Below are positions 5,344 to 36,547 of a stretch of 64,000 bases of DNA, piece after piece. Below the pieces are notes generated by a model that saw only the letters and a list, made by a program, of their open reading frames with translations, was not told the DNA's origin and did not search any database. The stretch is from Escherichia phage ukendt: the sequence record NC_052661.1. One strand, written 5' to 3'. Position 1 is the stretch's first letter; each line of letters begins with the position of its first letter. Made by a program: the position numbers and the translations under genes.

Positions 5344-5598
5344 TCTAGCCTCCTAAACGCGTCTCTGACGCACTTTTTATATATAAGATGATAAATCACC
5401 TTACCTAGTAAGTAAACTTGCTCTACGAGCCTCTTATGAAGCTTATGTTATAGGCTATACTATTGCTACCTGTTTAAGCAAGGTTTTTGCACACAGAAAA
5501 TAATTTTTAATAAAACTCTTGACTTTTGTGTTCGAAGTATGCTACCCTAGAAATCTATTAACGAGCGAAGCGAGTTAAGGTTTTAGGTTGTTGATGTA

Positions 5599-5630
5599 GT
5601 ACTCTGTACTCAAGTACTGTACTCCGTACT
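5599..5630. repeat. five closely spaced GTACT repeats
   Basis: GTACT at 5599, 5606, 5614, 5619 and 5626; further GTAC-containing motifs at 5681..5716. Confidence 0.6.
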
Positions 5631-5766
5631 AGATTAATAATTATTAAATATTAATAATAAATAATTATTAGATCTAACAAACAGGTACAGTGTATCAGAA
5701 CTGGTACGTACAGATCAACTTCTATCAATTAAAAAATAAAATAATAAATTATTATAAATAATACTT

Positions 5767-5778
5767 GATCTATAGATC
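5767..5778. repeat. perfect 12-bp palindrome GATCTATAGATC
   Basis: Read directly from sequence; 48 bp upstream of the first plus-strand ORF. Confidence 0.6.
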
Positions 5779-5825
5779 AGTATGAAGTATAGTACGGAAC
5801 ATCTTAACAAGAATGGAGGTGTGCA

Positions 5826-6011
5826 ATGATTAGTGAGAATCCGTGCAAATGGCATCATGTGCCTATTAAAGATTGTATGTCTTGTAATCCACGTTCTATT
5901 TATAACATTGCATCTTATGATGATGACAATGTGTTAGACGATGATGAAGGCTGGGAGGATTTAGATTGGACTGGTTATGAAACCAAAAAGGATAAAATTA
6001 TTCCTAGTTGA
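5826..6011 (+). CDS. hypothetical small acidic Cys-containing protein
   Basis: ATG preceded by GGAGG RBS; 61 aa. Confidence 0.4.
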   Translation: MISENPCKWHHVPIKDCMSCNPRSIYNIASYDDDNVLDDDEGWEDLDWTGYETKKDKIIPS

Positions 6012-6048
6012 CTTAAGATATCCTTCGTGCTAAACTAGAAATGAGGAG

Positions 6049-6300
6049 ATGCCGATCACTCCCCATTTGGGGTTCGAAGGATATATGCAAAATAGCTTTT
6101 ATTTTAGGTGCCGTGCTTGTAATAGGCATTTGACAAACCACTCCAGACGTGATAAAAATGGAGTCATCAAGGAATCAGACCTCTGTTCTATTTGCACAGG
6201 TTTGGCTTTTGATGATAGTCCCGAAAGGGTTTATCAGCATCAATGTATAACAGACGTTCTCGTGTCAAACTTGGTAGAGGACGAACAACTAACAGATTAG
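6049..6300 (+). CDS. hypothetical zinc-ribbon-like protein
   Basis: CRAC...CSIC cysteine pairs; possible alternative start at ATG 6085 with better RBS spacing. Confidence 0.35.
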   Translation: MPITPHLGFEGYMQNSFYFRCRACNRHLTNHSRRDKNGVIKESDLCSICTGLAFDDSPERVYQHQCITDVLVSNLVEDEQLTD

Positions 6301-6308
6301 GAGGAACA

Positions 6309-6557
6309 ATGTCTCTATTAGAAAAACACGTGTTTGAAGATGGTAACGGCAATGCAGTTTTTCTTTTCCATCCAGAAAAATACACATCTGAAAACAATGG
6401 TACAACTTCTATTGTAATCACTAAAGATGTTAAAGTTATTGATTTCTTGGCTCTGATGCGAGAGATGGATCTTGAAATTAATACTTTTAACGCAGAAGCT
6501 TTGGTTGTTGCTCTTCTGGAAAAGAAAGATAGTGAAGAAGTAGCAGAATATGCTTAA
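6309..6557 (+). CDS. hypothetical protein (start refined from track start 6243)
   Basis: ATG 6309 preceded by AGGAGG RBS; followed by a 10-bp-stem hairpin at 6571..6598. Confidence 0.45.
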   Translation: MSLLEKHVFEDGNGNAVFLFHPEKYTSENNGTTSIVITKDVKVIDFLALMREMDLEINTFNAEALVVALLEKKDSEEVAEYA

Positions 6558-6564
6558 ATAACTA

Positions 6565-6594
6565 TTGACAAACGTATCCTTCATATGTTAGGAT
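6565..6594 (+). promoter_or_regulatory. sigma70-like promoter (TTGACA, 18-nt spacer, TG-extended TAGGAT)
   Basis: Exact TTGACA at 6565..6570; TG then TAGGAT at 6589..6594; upstream of the first tRNA pair; overlaps the hairpin. Confidence 0.4.
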
Positions 6595-6804
6595 ACGTTC
6601 ATCAAGTGTGGTAACAGGGTCGTTGACTTTTGTTAAGAGAGGCTTGCACTGCGGATAGTGTTAGAGACTACTTCTTCAGAGGTTAGCTACCAAAGAGGAA
6701 AAGGAATAGTCTCGGCTCAAGAACTTTTACGCTGAAAGTTGGGCTTGGTCTTAGAGAATGTAGCGGTTCTCTACAATCGTCAGCGTCTCTGTTACCACAT
6801 TTAT

Positions 6805-6879
6805 GGCCCTGTAGCTCAATGGGAGAGCTGTCGGCTCATAACCGATAGGTAGCTGGATCGAAACCAGCCAGGGCCACCA
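6805..6879 (+). tRNA. tRNA-Met (anticodon CAT; elongator vs initiator vs Ile-lysidine not resolved)
   Basis: Hand-folded cloverleaf: acceptor GGCCCTG/CAGGGCC, D-stem GCTC/GAGC, anticodon loop CTCATAA, T-arm GCTGG-ATCGAAA-CCAGC, encoded CCA. Confidence 0.75.
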
Positions 6880-6881
6880 AC

Positions 6882-6956
6882 GTCTTTATGGTGTAATGGA
6901 TAGCACAGGAGTCTTCTAAACTCTTAGTCAAGGTTCGATTCCTTGTAAAGACACCA
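6882..6956 (+). tRNA. tRNA-Arg (anticodon TCT)
   Basis: Acceptor GTCTTTA/TAAAGAC, anticodon loop CTTCTAA, T-arm CAAGG-TTCGATT-CCTTG, encoded CCA. Confidence 0.75.
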
Positions 6957-7028
6957 GAACATTTTAACATGAATTAGCTCAAGTGATTTGAACCCACTAC
7001 TGATCATGGTGGCAGAGAATGAGGTAAG

Positions 7029-7100
7029 TATGTCAGACATTATAAACAAAGGCCACGGTTATATTAGAAGACATAAATGCTCGAAGAGCACCGTTCGCTG
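7029..7100 (+). CDS. possible 23-codon micro-ORF between tRNA blocks
   Basis: ATG 7029 with GAGG 5 nt upstream; MSDIINKGHGYIRRHKCSKSTVR; may equally be untranslated spacer or RNA. Confidence 0.15.
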
Positions 7101-7152
7101 AGAACGGGGGTTGGTGGAGTCACCATTCATGGTAAAATGTTTTAAAAAACTA

Positions 7153-7182
7153 TTGACAACTAACACTATTTTATGTTAGATT
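7153..7182 (+). promoter_or_regulatory. sigma70-like promoter (TTGACA, 18 nt, TG-extended TAGATT)
   Basis: Exact -35 at 7153..7158; predicted start site a few nt before tRNA-Ser at 7191. Confidence 0.5.
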
Positions 7183-7190
7183 ATAAGCAT

Positions 7191-7281
7191 GGAAGGGCAA
7201 ATCGACGTGGCGACGAAAACGGTCTTGAAAACCGCCGAGCTTGAAAGAGCCTTGGGAGTTCGACTCTCCCTCCTTCCGCCA
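7191..7281 (+). tRNA. tRNA-Ser (anticodon TGA), type II
   Basis: Acceptor GGAAGGG/TCCTTCC, anticodon arm ACGGT-CTTGAAA-ACCGC, long variable arm, T-arm GGGAG-TTCGACT-CTCCC, G73, CCA. Confidence 0.7.
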
Positions 7282-7285
7282 GATT

Positions 7286-7371
7286 GGTAGATTGGTGAAA
7301 TGGTAGCCACGACAGTTTGCTAAACTGTAGTCGGAAACGGCGTGTAGGTTCGAGTCCTACATCTACCGCCA
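7286..7371 (+). tRNA. tRNA-Ser (anticodon GCT), type II
   Basis: Acceptor GGTAGAT/ATCTACC, anticodon arm ACAGT-TTGCTAA-ACTGT, long variable arm, T-arm GTAGG-TTCGAGT-CCTAC, G73, CCA. Confidence 0.75.
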
Positions 7372-7501
7372 AGTTCTTTTTAATGTAGCTTACTTTAGCA
7401 GAGTAAATCTTCGGCAAGTGGCGGTAACCACTTTACCGATACCTCATAGTTAGTGGTGTGAACACTGGCTATTTTAAAAAGAATTTAAATATTAGTATTT
7501 A

Positions 7502-7589
7502 GGTGAGTTAATTCCGTAGGGGTAGCGGGGCAGACTGTAAATCTGTTATCATTGCGATTCGGGTGGTTCGACTCCATCACTCACCACCA
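7502..7589 (+). tRNA. tRNA-Tyr (anticodon GTA), type II, with atypical 5' region
   Basis: Acceptor GGTGAGT/ACTCACC perfect, anticodon arm GCAGA-CTGTAAA-TCTGT, A73, CCA; junction between acceptor and D-arm is longer than canonical. Confidence 0.5.
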
Positions 7590-7595
7590 AATTAA

Positions 7596-7681
7596 GATGA
7601 GTTGGCTGAATGGTTTAAGCGGCGGACTGTTAATCCGTGTTCGAAAGAACAATATAGGTTCGAATCCTATACTCATCGCCA
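7596..7681 (+). tRNA. type II (long variable arm) tRNA with anticodon GTT; isotype ambiguous (Ser-like body, Asn anticodon)
   Basis: Acceptor GATGAGT/ACTCATC, D-stem GCT/AGC, anticodon arm GCGGA-CTGTTAA-TCCGT, variable-arm hairpin GTTC-GAAA-GAAC, T-arm ATAGG-TTCGAAT-CCTAT, G73, CCA. Confidence 0.55.
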
Positions 7682-7688
7682 GAATTAT

Positions 7689-7765
7689 GGACTTGTAGAG
7701 TTAAGGTAAACCCCCAGTCGCCAATAGGCTTCTGGAATTGCAGGTATCGAATCCTGCCGAGTCCC
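7689..7765 (+). pseudogene. tRNA-like remnant (acceptor and T-arm-like pairing, no canonical anticodon arm)
   Basis: GGACTTG...CGAGTCC acceptor-like pairing, T-like GCAGG-TATCGAAT-CCTGC with 8-nt loop, no encoded CCA, no 5-bp/7-nt anticodon arm found. Confidence 0.25.
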
Positions 7766-7771
7766 AGCATT

Positions 7772-7846
7772 GCTCCTATAGTATAATGGCTATTACAACG
7801 GTTTTGTAATCCGTGGATCTCTGTTCGATTCAGTGTGGGAGCACCA
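7772..7846 (+). tRNA. tRNA-Thr (anticodon TGT)
   Basis: Acceptor GCTCCTA/TGGGAGC with one G-U pair, anticodon loop TTTGTAA, T-loop TTCGATT, encoded CCA. Confidence 0.65.
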
Positions 7847-8118
7847 ACACAACATTAAGAGCACTGTGATTGATCGTCGTATCCTGTGCACAAGGTCTGC
7901 TCGAAAGACAGTGTTCTTAGTATTGTGTTGATCACAAAAAGAGTCACCCGAAACTTGACCGGAGTAGGGTTGGATGGGGCAAAATGAGAAGCGGCTCTCC
8001 CATCGACAGCAACGAAGAATAATATTTGACTTTGGTTTTGTATTATTTAAGTTAGCTTACCGAACGTAGGGCTAGTCACCCAACGGGATACTCGTCACTG
8101 TCCCAATCAATAAAAGTC

Positions 8119-8148
8119 TTGACAACAAATAGTAAAATGTAGTATAGT
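8119..8148 (+). promoter_or_regulatory. sigma70-like promoter (TTGACA, 18 nt, TG-extended TATAGT)
   Basis: Exact -35 at 8119..8124 and TATAGT at 8143..8148; predicted start just upstream of tRNA-Gly. Confidence 0.55.
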
Positions 8149-8159
8149 AAAGATATAGG

Positions 8160-8233
8160 GCGTTCTTGGTGTAGCGGTAGCATTCCGTCCTTCCAAGTCG
8201 GCGGCACGAGTTCGATCCTCGTAGAACGCTCCA
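8160..8233 (+). tRNA. tRNA-Gly (anticodon TCC)
   Basis: Acceptor GCGTTCT/AGAACGC, anticodon loop CTTCCAA, T-arm ACGAG-TTCGATC-CTCGT, encoded CCA. Confidence 0.7.
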
Positions 8234-8330
8234 AATTATTTAATAAAGGGTTGCCAGAAAACTTTCTCTTTTACTCATGGTTTTCTCCTTCTCTCACACT
8301 TCTTCTGGTTGCCCTTCATTAAATGATTTT

Positions 8331-8406
8331 TGGTTTGTAGTGTAGTCCGGTAGCACACGACACTTTGACTGTCGTAGGTTTGGTTCAAATCCAGACAGAC
8401 CAGCCA
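8331..8406 (+). tRNA. tRNA-Gln (anticodon TTG)
   Basis: U1-A72 pair and G73 as in enterobacterial tRNA-Gln; anticodon arm CGACA-CTTTGAC-TGTCG; T-loop TTCAAAT; CCA. Confidence 0.7.
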
Positions 8407-8411
8407 TATAA

Positions 8412-8488
8412 CGGAATTTAGCTCAGTTTGGTAGAGTGTACGCTTTGGGAGCGTATTGTCGCAGGTTCGAATCCTGCAATTCCGACCA
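8412..8488 (+). tRNA. tRNA-Pro (anticodon TGG)
   Basis: Acceptor CGGAATT/AATTCCG, anticodon arm TACGC-TTTGGGA-GCGTA, T-arm GCAGG-TTCGAAT-CCTGC, CCA. Confidence 0.8.
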
Positions 8489-8494
8489 ATTAAA

Positions 8495-8568
8495 TGTTTC
8501 GTAGTTCAATGGTAGAACCCACGACTGATAATCGTGAGACACAAGTTCGATTCTTGTCGAAACAACCA
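8495..8568 (+). tRNA. tRNA-Ile (anticodon GAT)
   Basis: Acceptor TGTTTCG/CGAAACA, D-arm GTTC-AATGGTA-GAAC, anticodon arm CACGA-CTGATAA-TCGTG, T-arm ACAAG-TTCGATT-CTTGT, CCA. Confidence 0.8.
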
Positions 8569-8570
8569 GT

Positions 8571-8643
8571 TTCCCGTTAGACTTACAGGATAAGAGTTCC
8601 ACAGCTTATTGTGATGCTGGTTCGAATCCAGCACGGGATACAT
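8571..8643 (+). pseudogene. tRNA-like remnant (good T-arm, degenerate anticodon arm, no CCA)
   Basis: T-arm GCTGG-TTCGAAT-CCAGC and 6/7 acceptor pairing (TTCCCGT/ACGGGAT); no acceptable anticodon stem-loop. Confidence 0.25.
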
Positions 8644-8646
8644 AAT

Positions 8647-8725
8647 AGCGGGATAGAGGAGTCTGGTCGTCCTCGCCAGTTTCATATGCTGGAGATCATT
8701 GGTTCAAATCCGATTCCCGCCTCCA
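8647..8725 (+). tRNA. second CAT-anticodon tRNA (Met/initiator/Ile-lysidine), with a 1-72 mismatch
   Basis: Anticodon arm CCAGT-TTCATAT-GCTGG, T-loop TTCAAAT, acceptor AGCGGGA/TCCCGCC with an A1-C72 mismatch, CCA. Confidence 0.6.
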
Positions 8726-8840
8726 AATATCGCTTGCCAGCGGTATCTTTGAAGACCTTGCCTGGTTCCTTCTAAGATGGAGGGGTGCGACTCCTTAACG
8801 CACAATTATAATAAAGCATTTCAAATTAACAGTATTTATT

Positions 8841-8864
8841 AGCCTCCTTATTGGAGGCTTTTTG
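8841..8864 (+). terminator. rho-independent terminator closing the tRNA array
   Basis: AGCCTCC-TTATT-GGAGGCT hairpin followed by TTTTT. Confidence 0.7.
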
Positions 8865-8883
8865 CTATCTATTGAATAAAACT

Positions 8884-8911
8884 TGACTTATTATTTTTTA
8901 TATGTTAAGAT
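8884..8911 (+). promoter_or_regulatory. sigma70-like promoter (TTGACT, 16 nt, TG-extended TAAGAT)
   Basis: -35 at 8884..8889; TG at 8903..8904 then TAAGAT; AGGAGG RBS and ATG 8933 follow. Confidence 0.5.
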
Positions 8912-8932
8912 AAAGTTTAGGAGGATTTTATT

Positions 8933-9229
8933 ATGCCTAAACTAAAACGTGGTCGTGGAAGACCAACAGCCGAAATGCAACAGATCTACGCAATGGATGC
9001 GGCGCAAGCAAGTGTAAAAGAATTATTTGCAGAGCATTATTTAGAAGCTATGCGATATATTGTTGAACTTGTTAATGATAAGGATGCAGCAAAACCTCTC
9101 CGCTTCCAAGCAGCTAAAGCTATTAAAGAGCAAGTAGAAGAATGGTTAGAAGAACATTATGAAGCTATGGAAGAAGAAACCCCTGCCGTGCAGAATACAG
9201 ATGACGTTCCTAAAAAGATCGTAATCTAA
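8933..9229 (+). CDS. hypothetical protein; possible small terminase subunit / DNA-binding protein
   Basis: N-terminal KRGRGRP basic motif; first ORF of the module that contains the large terminase; AGGAGG RBS. Confidence 0.3.
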   Translation: MPKLKRGRGRPTAEMQQIYAMDAAQASVKELFAEHYLEAMRYIVELVNDKDAAKPLRFQAAKAIKEQVEEWLEEHYEAMEEETPAVQNTDDVPKKIVI

Positions 9230-9369
9230 TCCCTCTCCTCTCTTGGGGCTTTGCCCCTCCTCCTTGTTATTTTTAACACCCCTCTCCGAAAGGTTAGGGG
9301 CTTTTTTATTTTTAATGCTTGCAATTGTATATCATTTTGTGATAAGATCAGATATGAGGAGGATAAAAT

Positions 9370-9540
9370 ATGCGCAATTTTGTAGTTAAAAATGATTTTA
9401 ACCGTTCTTCTTATCATAAAGATAAAAAGAATGATTACACACGGGTTTGGAACTTGGAGGAAGAACTTTATGATGACAGAGAAGACTTGGGAAGAGATCC
9501 TAGCGGAGGCTCAACCAATGGAAGTGAAGAAGATAGTTAA
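9370..9540 (+). CDS. possible 56-aa ORF missing from the track
   Basis: ATG 9370 preceded by GAGGAGG; acidic product; overlaps the 9392..9607 track ORF in another frame, so at most one is real. Confidence 0.25.
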   Translation: MRNFVVKNDFNRSSYHKDKKNDYTRVWNLEEELYDDREDLGRDPSGGSTNGSEEDS

Positions 9541-35967: not shown

Positions 35968-35989
35968 ATAATTGATATTATGCTTCATG

Positions 35990-36022
35990 GTAATTGTGGG
36001 TGAATCACTCACAATTACTTTT
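35990..36022 (+). terminator. long near-perfect inverted repeat after the tailspike gene, followed by TTTT
   Basis: GTAATTGTGGGTGA / TCACTCACAATTAC arms (one mismatch), then TTTTAG. Confidence 0.5.
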
Positions 36023-36547
36023 AGGTACTACAGTTGATAATTCAGATTGATACATTGGATTAGCAGGTGCGTGTACTACTAGCACTTGAATTTTGATACA
36101 TAAATCCGGCACCCTCCCTCACCCTCAACGCGCCCAATTGCCTCCATAGGAGGCTCATTACCTCCTTGTGGGCTTTGTTGTAGGCATGATTGCTGTTCAA
36201 TATTTTAGGCACTAACCAGCCGACATTGTTGATGGAAATATAAACGTAAACAACAATGCATATAACTCAGTTGTTGTGGCACTAAATTCTTACGTAGGTT
36301 ATAGGTTGTTGTAAAACAAAACCCCGACTCGGCGGAGAATTATAAAGGTACTATCATGGACTTCATTACGATTCAAACAAACTATGTCCTGCAAGCGCAT
36401 GTCATCGCCATGTGATAAAATGATGAAAACATATCGTAGCAGGGTTAATCTTGTCTTTAGTTACTATCGTACTAACTCAAAGTGTTGTCACTACCACTGC
36501 AAGCCCCCTCCAAAGAGGGGCTTACTTAGAAAAACAAAGAGGTTTAT

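Follow-up and report, generated by a model that had tools for sequence, protein, structure and literature searches.

Positions 6565-8864 of the sequence analysed here, a 64,000-nucleotide stretch of Escherichia phage ukendt (NC_052661.1) referred to below as the window, carry an array of tRNA genes on the plus strand. Along its whole length, the region 6300-9100 matches many Phapecoctavirus genomes (Stephanstirmvirinae; phAPEC8, ESCO13, AV126 and others) at 98.3-98.9% identity; the window and Escherichia phage AV126 are approximately 99% identical. Coverage of 80% or more of the region, at 95-99% identity, was found in 62 phage records. The best annotated relative, MZ726793 (98.6% identical), carries 12 tRNA genes called by tRNAscan-SE and a predicted terminator in this region, which is situated about 1.4 kb upstream of the large terminase gene. 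The locus is therefore already known and annotated as a tRNA cluster in GenBank relatives. The tRNAs account for approximately 950 nt of the 2,300-nt array, and the remainder consists largely of separately closed RNA folds (about 1.1 kb of "spacer"). To judge from folding and comparison, these "spacers" are themselves conserved structured RNAs, which were overlooked in a preliminary description of the array; about half of the 2.3 kb is made up of unannotated, conserved, folded non-tRNA RNAs. The open reading frame (ORF) listing revealed no plausible ORF inside the array: all ORFs are of 59 amino acids or fewer, except for one of 78 amino acids on the minus strand, and most overlap tRNA genes.

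The preliminary description had counted about 12 tRNA genes. ARAGORN called 10 of them, the Rfam tRNA model RF00005 matched 11 (39-72 bits), adding tRNA-Tyr(GTA) (match 7502-7586, 39 bits) to the ARAGORN set, and the 12 genes annotated in MZ726793 follow the order Ile-CAT, Arg-TCT, Ser-TGA, Ser-GCT, Tyr-GTA, Asn-GTT, Thr-TGT, Gly-TCC, Gln-TTG, Pro-TGG, Ile-GAT and Met-CAT. Thus, with automated tRNA finders the number and placement of the genes hold, not materially fewer being found, and the isotypes that had been listed by hand, including a "GTT type II" gene, are all correct when compared with the MZ726793 annotation. The genes for tRNA-Arg(TCT) (6882-6956), tRNA-Ser(GCT) (7286-7371), tRNA-Thr(TGT) (7772-7846), tRNA-Gly(TCC) (8160-8233), tRNA-Gln(TTG) (8331-8406), tRNA-Pro(TGG) (8412-8488) and tRNA-Ile(GAT) (8495-8568) were found by ARAGORN and Rfam and are annotated in MZ726793. 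The gene for tRNA-Tyr(GTA) (7502-7589) is given by Rfam and by tRNAscan-SE annotation in relatives. The CCA end had been ascribed to most of the genes; it is indeed encoded, but "most" was too low, since 12 of 12 genes end in CCA.

Throughout the array the phiWec181/190 clade, at roughly 80% identity (phiWec181 and the window are 79% identical over RNA A, see below), served as the yardstick of conservation. Identity to this clade amounts to 62% in the upstream coding sequence (CDS), 31-46% in the variable spacers and 94-100% in the tRNAs. Two stretches of the array, 8006-8062 and 8806-8840, are unconstrained (31-46% identical to phiWec). The rest of the non-tRNA sequence is largely occupied by at least eight modules of 45-200 nt, which we term A, B, C, TL1, D1/D2/D4, E, TL2 and F. 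They are closed by their own helices and abut the tRNA ends within 0-10 nt, and most of them show covariation or conservation at the level of tRNAs. In an Rfam 15 search at E ≤ 1 over 6000-9500 no non-tRNA family stood above noise in any module; the other matches were a 29-bit match of the RyhB model to the terminator hairpin and weak ones overlapping tRNA genes. At gathering thresholds only tRNAs were obtained for the whole window. GenBank records show either nothing or stray "hypothetical protein" calls under the modules, and a literature search found no earlier description of these module RNAs for this phage group. The spacers define several unannotated structured RNA families absent from Rfam.

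Two of the modules had already been recognized as tRNA-like elements, and the elements, with an acceptor stem of 6-7 bp, a T arm and a non-anticodon hairpin in place of the anticodon arm, were recovered at the same places. TL1 (7689-7769; fold z-score -3.0) combines an acceptor stem of 7 bp with a conserved UAGAGUUAAGGUAAAC region, a long hairpin that lacks an anticodon loop, and a T arm whose loop measures 8 nt; CCA is not encoded. It shares UAGAGUUAAG(G)UAAAC and the unusual 8-nt T loop YAUCGAAU with RNA3 of phage T5, and a single covariance model recognizes both T5 RNA3 (85.8 bits) and the TL1 of the window (74 bits). The element directly follows the Asn tRNA in the window (gap of 7 nt), phi92 (4 nt), Spc35 and T5 (2 nt each). 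By sequence, structure and position, TL1 is thus assigned to the T5 RNA3 family. Members were found in Phapecoctavirus, Justusliebigvirus, T5-like phages (Demerecviridae) and an unrelated 56-kb IMG/VR contig, where a long UUCG-capped hairpin replaces the anticodon arm. In the acceptor and T stems of the family 8 of 12 pairs are compensatory, and 95% of the cells are paired compared with 26-46% for slid partners. The half comprising acceptor, T arm and elbow is conserved, and the substitute for the anticodon arm varies freely.

TL2 (8571-8643; z-score -3.2) has an acceptor stem of 6 bp and a canonical T arm (GCUGG-UUCGAAU-CCAGC), together with a single hairpin whose loop is 10 nt long; a D arm is lacking. 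It is 93-96% conserved in phiWec181/190 and ASO2A and, among the fetched loci, was seen only in Phapecoctavirus. A relationship of TL2 to the TL1 family was considered and rejected, the TL1 model giving 23.8 bits, which is the level of an ordinary tRNA. The view that both elements are decayed copies did not stand: TL1 and TL2 are 97.5% and 94.5% identical in phiWec, whereas the CDS reaches 62% and the variable spacers 31-46%. Because they are conserved like tRNAs, far above the upstream CDS, and because the stems of TL1 are compensated, the comparison indicates that both are under selection and are not decaying copies.

RNA A (6604-6802) is a multi-helix RNA of approximately 199 nt with a closing stem of 16+7 bp, identified by folding and by covariation between two clades. 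Its minimum free energy is -78 kcal/mol (z-score -5.9). Among 74 pairs compared between the window and phiWec181, 9 are kept by double-sided and 5 by one-sided changes, and 5 are broken. RNA A occurs in 69 phage records, none of which annotates it, and was found only in Phapecoctavirus. RNA B (6957-7142, approximately 186 nt) is closed by a long helix (fold z-score -3.5; covariation) and contains the invariant blocks AUUAGCUCA, ACUGAUCAU, GGAGAAUGAG and GGUGGAGUCACCAU. Homologs of about 71% identity lie in the Seunavirus phages GAP31 and SSE121, likewise between tRNA genes. Compensatory changes affect 15 of its 51 pairs; 97.5% of the cells are paired compared with 41-48% after sliding, and none of 500 shuffles reached this value. 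A scan of IMG/VR with a 14-mer of RNA B yielded chance matches only and no new homolog after filtering. The CUGAUCA sequence in RNA B was inspected as a hammerhead-like motif and rejected: by eye, the essential G of CUGAUGA is a C, and there is no Rfam match.

RNA C (7371-7490, approximately 115 nt) consists of a closing stem of 13+5 bp and three hairpins and was established by covariation and a covariance model. The stem of one hairpin, CUUACUUU-ARY-AGAGUAAA, is invariant. Homologs with 74-98% identity were found in rV5-like phages (98%), Certrevirus, the T5-like phage Spc35 (81%), PBES02, phi92, PHB05 and phiWec, always within tRNA arrays and immediately upstream of tRNA-Tyr or tRNA-Lys. Seven of 40 pairs are compensatory, and 100% of the cells are paired compared with 38-55% when slid. 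The covariance model scored 100-138 bits on the plus strand, which is the tRNA strand, versus 23-41 bits on the minus strand. When IMG/VR was scanned for the RNA C hairpin, no more than 4 true matches were obtained.

Three modules lie between tRNA-Thr and the promoter-like site P3. RNA D1 (7847-7928) is an 82-nt hairpin with a stem of about 20 bp, recognized by conservation and covariation, and is 100% identical in the phiWec clade. Its conserved apical domain of about 40 nt (GAUUGAUCGUCGU..GUCUGCUCGAA) was found on a differing but paired stem of about 20 bp in the Klebsiella phage SCNJ1-C, the Nonanavirus PJ16 and approximately 15 IMG/VR contigs, some of them lambdoid prophages. In SCNJ1-C, a siphovirus, D1 adjoins tRNA-Arg and tRNA-Met; PJ16 is a 9NA-like phage. 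In lambdoid prophages tRNA genes precede D1 by about 190 nt, and it is flanked by the Q antiterminator on one side and the holin/lysozyme genes on the other. Eight pairs are compensatory, a result reached by none of 500 shuffles, and Rfam at gathering thresholds detected only tRNAs on the D1-bearing loci. RNA D2 (7940-8005) forms two helices and contains AGUCACCC; it is 85-89% conserved compared with 33% for the adjacent 8006-8062, and in phiWec181 its GGAUGGGG/CUCCCAUC becomes GGAUGGAA/UUUCCAUC. RNA D4 (8063-8105), which has two small hairpins and also contains AGUCACCC, is 95% conserved in phiWec and 89.6% identical to a stretch in Citrobacter phage Tr1. D2 and D4 thus flank an unalignable stretch (8006-8062).

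Hairpins of the D1 type in different phages were observed to share a basal stem (CAACAGGTAAGAGCA / TGCTCTTnnCGTTGTG) and to differ in their apical domains (loci L148 2497-2588; L149 2485-2575 and about 2690-2790; L003 2214-2300; L153 4451; L156 7844), which looks like a hairpin scaffold with exchangeable tips. The heptamer AGTCACC occurs 5 times in the 64 kb (both strands), and 3 of the 5 copies are on the plus strand inside the array (7118-7124, 7942-7948 and 8074-8080), each in a conserved block (RNA B, D2 and D4), where we estimate that approximately 0.1 would be expected. A related GGUGAGUCACUACC hairpin is part of an extra Gln-Pro module of relatives (L001 3611-3703).

RNA E (8234-8328; z-score -5.8) has a long interrupted closing stem around a loop with CUCAUGGUUUUCUCCUUC and is 99% identical in phiWec. 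Its 18-nt loop is kept in phi92 and PHB05, where the stem of 13-14 bp is wholly different, yet paired. The loop (8274-8291) is the exact complement of a textbook ribosome-binding site (RBS) plus AUG (GAAGGAGAAAACCAUGAG) and might either act as an anti-RBS seed or mark the beginning of a minus-strand micro-ORF of 12 codons (8 codons in phi92). A search of the window for a trans target of the loop returned as its best site 51210, with 3 mismatches and only a generic RBS, and a scan of genome contigs matched scattered unrelated bacteria, with no E. coli among the matches listed. RNA F (8735-8805; conservation, z-score -2.2) comprises three or four small hairpins. It is 87% identical in phiWec and approximately 90% in phi92 and PHB05, and the sequence beyond it is unalignable.

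The gene at 7596-7681 (ARAGORN; Rfam, 62 bits) encodes a tRNA with the Asn anticodon GTT and a class II shape. A 4-bp variable-arm stem, GUUC-GAAA-GAAC, stands between the anticodon and T arms, followed by G73 and CCA. This stem is compensated in relatives: GAAC/GUUC in phi92, GAGU/ACUC in SSE121, GGGA/UCCC in GAP31 and GUC/GAC in Spc35. Long-arm tRNAs of bacteria are normally those for Leu, Ser and Tyr, and the determinants of asparaginyl-tRNA synthetase are the anticodon GUU and G73. The anticodon arm equals that of E. coli asnT over 19 nt, and GUU and G73 also match asnT. The tRNA may accept Asn, but a long arm combined with G73 is also Ser-like. T5 itself and PBES02 have ordinary short-arm Asn tRNAs. 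Comparison with the Tyr, Ser and Leu tRNAs of the same phage gave identities of 54-72% and no consistent nearest relative. A BLAST search against 5,426 E. coli genomes yielded nothing useful at that database size, and no long-arm Asn tRNA was found described in our literature search. Such a tRNA, conserved and of class II shape yet bearing an Asn anticodon, clashes with the textbook rule that long arms in bacteria belong to Leu, Ser and Tyr.

Three further tRNA genes deserve comment. The tRNA-CAT at 6805-6879 (ARAGORN, Rfam; Ile-CAT by tRNAscan-SE in MZ726793) is, among T4 tRNAs, closest to tRNA-Ile (71% identity, first 18 nt identical) and is probably of the Ile2 (AUA-reading) type. The second tRNA-CAT (8647-8725, 79 nt; ARAGORN; Rfam, 47 bits; called Met in MZ726793) has a 5-bp D stem with a 9-nt loop. 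It shows an A1-C72 mismatch atop the acceptor stem, an initiator-like trait, and is devoid of the three G-C pairs of initiator anticodon stems; its identity may be Met, fMet or Ile2. It is 96% conserved in phiWec, and a 79-nt CAT tRNA of the same layout was called in phi92 and PHB05. The tRNA-Ser(TGA) gene (7191-7281) has an atypical D arm, was missed by ARAGORN and is annotated as Ser-TGA by tRNAscan-SE in MZ726793. Since its sole Rfam match is to the tRNA-Sec model (7191-7277) at 37.4 bits, below the threshold of 47, it is the weakest of the 12 tRNA genes; it is 94.5% conserved in phiWec181. A different Ser(TGA) allele, called by ARAGORN, was noticed in phiWec190 and phi92, and a copy of approximately 85% identity is unannotated in Cronobacter phage PBES02 (L007 4798-4888).

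A promoter scan with criteria for sigma-70 extended -10 promoters (-35 TTGACA, spacer of 17-18 nt, TGn, -10 hexamer with A2 and T6) placed promoter-like sites exactly at 6565, 7153 and 8119, where they had been proposed before. P1 (6565-6594) consists of TTGACA, an 18-nt spacer and TG-n-TAGGAT; P1 and P2 (7153-7182) each have 10 of 12 consensus matches with TG. P3 (8119-8148; TTGACA, 18 nt, TATAGT) has 11 of 12. The motif TTGACA-N15-TGTNR, stricter than that of a generic promoter scan, is enriched in the window (5 versus 0.49 expected). In phiWec181/190 the -35 and TGnTA...T elements are retained, and the spacer bases differ. Equivalents of P2 precede tRNA-Ser(TGA) in phi92, PHB05, phiWec181 and phiWec190. 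P3 is 90-93% conserved in phiWec and has an equivalent before tRNA-Gly in phi92 and PHB05, which belong to a different genus. Because the elements are kept while the spacers diverge, and because P2 and P3 have equivalents in another genus, the three sites are likely to be real sigma-70-type extended -10 promoters. P1 would start transcription near 6601, a few nucleotides before the 199-nt RNA A, P2 1-2 nt before the mature 5' end of tRNA-Ser(TGA) and P3 4-5 nt before that of tRNA-Gly. No minus-strand promoter-like site was found by the promoter scan in 6000-9500.

As previously claimed, the array ends in a single intrinsic terminator at 8841 (8841-8864), which consists of AGCCUCC-UUAUU-GGAGGCU followed by UUUUU. 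The hairpin (8841-8859) has 7 bp, 5 of them GC, and a loop of 5 nt, a T run (TTTTT) follows, and a terminator is annotated at the same place in MZ726793. The scan of the array detected no terminator between the promoter units. Consequently, the earlier division into three sub-operons can be kept only in part: promoter-driven units are plausible, their promoters being comparatively supported, but in view of the lack of an internal terminator they are probably nested read-through transcripts that all end at 8841, and not closed operons.

Host sigma-70 RNA polymerase would start at P1 (RNA A), P2 (tRNA-Ser(UGA)) and P3 (tRNA-Gly) and proceed rightwards to 8841, giving nested polycistronic precursors in which the 12 tRNAs are interleaved with at least eight non-tRNA modules. 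In the tRNA operons of E. coli and T4, 5' ends are generated by RNase P and 3' ends by endonucleases and 3' exonucleases. Likewise, RNase P would cut the 5' end of each tRNA and tRNA-like element, and RNase E and/or RNase III (acting on the long helices) together with 3' exonucleases would release the units. Because CCA is encoded in every tRNA, no repair step would be needed. Excision of the tRNAs would liberate the modules, which should persist as stable RNAs because of their compact, closed folds. By analogy with rnaC and rnaD of T4 and with the stable RNAs of T5, co-transcription of the modules, followed by their excision as stable small RNAs through the enzymes that process the tRNAs, is the most likely course.

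The tRNAs would supplement decoding in this phage of 39% GC, in which the codons AGA, AUA, ACA, GGA, CAA and CCA are far commoner than in the host. In 47 ORFs of the window AGA makes up 20% of Arg codons, ATA 19% of Ile, ACA 42% of Thr, GGA 26% of Gly, CAA 71% of Gln and CCA 37% of Pro. For E. coli O157, values of 5.1% (AGA), 14.6% (ACA) and 19.1% (CCA) have been reported (PMC3606486). In this comparison, which the preliminary description had proposed, AGA, ACA and CCA are thus far commoner in the window ORFs than the quoted values. A second, compatible role would be the replacement of host tRNAs cleaved by defence nucleases. Phage tRNAs rescue infection from PARIS, PrrC-type and retron-associated tRNases, as documented for T5 (PMC11464382, PMC10264068 and reference 37 in PMC13056530).

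Taken together, it is likely that 6565-8864 is a non-coding stable-RNA island of Phapecoctavirus, a phAPEC8-like E. coli myophage. This judgement combines the anatomy of the array, of which we are highly confident, with the promoters, graded above, and with the proposal that the modules are functional RNAs in their own right, each with a specific partner (protein or RNA), which we favour by a modest degree. Each module is judged to be an independently closed fold that is under purifying selection, and not filler. A specific partner is suggested because loops and apical domains are conserved beyond the needs of base pairing. Several points weigh against this interpretation. RNA A is supported by two clades only, and RNA F and TL2 by conservation within close relatives, with no covariation. 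The generic promoter scan gave 8 sites in the region versus 7.5 expected from shuffles. That D1, E and TL1 are so similar across genera may in part be due to a recent horizontal exchange of cassettes and not to long-term constraint. Moreover, we infer the start sites, the processing sites and the stability of the module RNAs throughout, and no partner or target of any module was found, the target searches having been made with the RNA E loop.

Unconstrained filler between the genes, with TL1 and TL2 as pseudogenes decaying after duplication, would account for the missing 7-nt anticodon loops, for the failure of ARAGORN and of the Rfam tRNA model to call the two elements and for the CCA that TL1 does not encode; moreover, 8006-8062 and 8806-8840 are truly unconstrained. 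This explanation is already contradicted by the present data, and its probability is minimal. TL1 and TL2 are conserved like functional tRNAs beside an adjacent CDS at 62%, the TL1 family spans Demerecviridae, Stephanstirmvirinae and the 56-kb contig with compensated acceptor and T stems, and A, B, C and D1 contain many compensatory pairs. The latter patterns fit RNA helices, not codons, and also speak against micro-proteins or minus-strand features as the reason for the conservation of some spacer blocks. Such features would be conceivable for RNA E, for example: the minus strand of its loop reads GAAGGAGAAAACCATGAG, an RBS with ATG, followed by an ORF of 12 codons in the window and 8 codons in phi92 with similar first residues (MSKRESFL and MSEKRNFL), and some GenBank records call small "hypothetical proteins" in the spacers. 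However, 6000-9500 has no minus-strand promoter-like site, the G-U pairs in the E stem favour the plus-strand hairpin, and the ORFs of the region are short and overlap tRNAs. We regard coding or minus-strand features as very improbable.

Alternatively, the role of the modules could be confined to cis: they would punctuate the precursor and insulate its folding, and the excised pieces would be by-products. Long helices would serve as entry sites for RNase III, tRNA-like minihelices as sites at which RNase P releases the preceding tRNA at its 3' end, and the closed folds would prevent mispairing of neighbouring tRNAs. T4 tRNAs mature from multimeric precursors in an ordered way, and the layout found here is compatible with such a role: each module is self-closed and lies 0-10 nt from the tRNA ends, TL1 follows the Asn tRNA by 2-7 nt in the window, phi92, Spc35 and T5, and the D1 of lambdoid prophages, between tRNAs and lysis mRNA, occupies a natural position for a processing site. 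RNase III and RNase P, however, require shape and not sequence, whereas the unpaired or invariant parts are the most conserved ones (the D1 apex, the single-stranded blocks of B, the C hairpin, the E loop and the D-region of TL1). Since many tRNAs of the array lie 2-7 nt apart without a module between them, and since the 93-nt Gln-Pro module of relatives is simply absent here, modules are not needed for separation. An exclusive role in cis is thus unlikely, although it keeps an appreciable share of the probability. The array might also serve mainly in counter-defence, the tRNAs replacing the victims of anticodon nucleases and the tRNA-like RNAs acting as decoys or inhibitors of host factors that target or sense tRNAs. 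The T5 rescue from PARIS, PrrC-type and retron-associated tRNases (PMC11464382, PMC10264068; ref. 37 in PMC13056530) agrees with this, as do the presence of the TL1 homolog RNA3 in T5, the retention of the acceptor/T-arm/elbow half beside a variable anticodon-arm substitute in the TL1 family, and the host anticodon arm on a different body in the long-arm Asn tRNA. Nevertheless, no experimental or contextual link between the modules and defence systems exists here, the anticodon loop of the Asn tRNA is identical to that of the host, without a mutation of the evasion type, and the skew of codon usage alone accounts for the tRNA set. We therefore consider counter-defence as the main purpose to be quite improbable.

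The stable-RNA island that we prefer finds its closest counterparts in the tRNA regions of T5 and T4. The T5 record NC_005859 lists eight "stable RNA with unknown functions" among its tRNAs (RNAI, RNAIII, RNAIV, RNA1, RNA2, RNA2H, RNA3 and RNAX) and labels RNA3, directly after tRNA-Asn, as "putative tRNA-like RNA". Both phages combine a tRNA array with several sigma-70-type promoters and interleaved non-tRNA RNAs with long closing helices, some of them tRNA-like, and TL1 is a true homolog of RNA3 in the same place after the Asn tRNA. In contrast, the other T5 stable RNAs have no significant blastn match to the array, and the RNA C covariance model finds nothing in T5, though RNA C is present in the T5-like phage Spc35. 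Furthermore, T5 RNA3 encodes CCA and TL1 does not, and many ORFs and homing endonuclease genes interrupt the T5 array, whereas the array of the window is ORF-free. On the T5 minus strand, between promoter P14a and tRNA-Tyr (L028 8429-8524), an unannotated stretch of about 95 nt was observed, with a long closing helix by eye (UGAAUGAGAAGUAA...UUACUUUUCAUUCA); it occupies the position that RNA C has in Spc35 and is not homologous to it.

T4 (NC_000866) likewise has eight tRNAs for codons rare in the host and co-transcribed rnaC (species 1) and rnaD (species 2); rnaC has a tRNA-like T arm and a closing stem, as TL1 and TL2 do. The tRNAs of the window cover 7 of the 8 T4 anticodons (UUG, UCC, UGG, UGA, UGU, CAU and UCU). 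However, the array of the window has four times as many non-tRNA modules, and all 12 of its tRNAs encode CCA, whereas some T4 tRNAs do not. A blastn comparison of rnaC and rnaD with the array at word size 7 gave only chance matches the size of a T loop, the TL1 covariance model had no match in T4, and the models R1 and R2 had none in the T4 locus.

In the arrays of Phapecoctavirus, Justusliebigvirus and Vequintavirinae (phAPEC8, ESCO13, phi92, rV5 and the PVP-SE1 group) the same locus holds 12 tRNAs in the best records, which differ from the present account in describing neither the structured RNAs and tRNA-like elements nor the Asn tRNA as one of class II shape. For rV5, sigma-70-like promoters, some with extended -10, have been reported and the tRNAs explained by codon usage (PMC3606486). 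The modules also resemble GOLLD and ROOL in being structured non-coding RNAs that travel with phage tRNA genes; the present ones measure 45-200 nt, and the Rfam scan (E ≤ 1, 6000-9500) gave no GOLLD or ROOL match. GOLLD and ROOL are large, ornate phage non-coding RNAs of 500-800 nt next to tRNA genes and are established Rfam families.

Taken as a tRNA array, the locus is ordinary and known from GenBank; the modules are new additions to the stable RNAs of phage tRNA operons. Module families recur beside tRNA genes in T5-like, rV5-like and phi92-like phages, Seunavirus, 9NA-like siphoviruses and lambdoid prophages, and, judging by this distribution, several of them are moving between unrelated phages together with tRNA genes. 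A bolder and decidedly speculative extension, which we consider unlikely, is that the array is a horizontally shuffled toolkit of at least eight small RNA families, each with a specific cellular target, that hitch-hike on tRNA operons. If so, the tRNA-processing machinery of the host would manufacture these small RNAs (B, C, the D1 scaffold, the anti-RBS loop of E, TL1, TL2 and others), the tRNA mimics could act as decoys that divert tRNA-targeting immunity or enzymes binding tRNA, and the class II Asn tRNA could be body-swapped, escaping a nuclease or modification enzyme that recognizes the host Asn tRNA. The stable RNAs of T4 and T5 were first described decades ago, and the GenBank records consulted list rnaC, rnaD and those of T5 without assigning them a function. 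Homologous and analogous modules in many genomes open this old question to comparative and genetic study.

Between close relatives the array is clearly mosaic. Where the window has the long-arm Asn gene, phiWec181/190 carry an ORF of 42 codons preceded by a strong GGAGG RBS. Alleles of Tyr, Thr and Pro are also swapped. Most relatives carry the extra 93-nt module between tRNA-Gln and tRNA-Pro (L001 3611-3703), which is absent from the window. Further structured modules are inserted in relatives and absent here; the mosaic loci comprise, besides the one just named, L002 1804-1932 and L003 2214-2400 and 2950-3149.

The array is also present, with 80-99% identity to E. coli phages, in phage records labelled Campylobacter, Acinetobacter, Pseudomonas, Klebsiella and "Dompiswa"; Campylobacter phage B15 (98.5%) and Pseudomonas phage PsgM04F (80%) are examples. 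For sequence so typical of coliphages, these host labels seem doubtful. The window contains two other long internal ORF-free stretches, 5344-5825 and 35968-36547, neither with an Rfam match. The former, a divergent intergenic region rich in AT, includes an 18-nt palindrome (5635-5670); in the latter there are a 14-nt palindrome (35990-36018) and, on the minus strand, a hairpin resembling a terminator (36337-36322).

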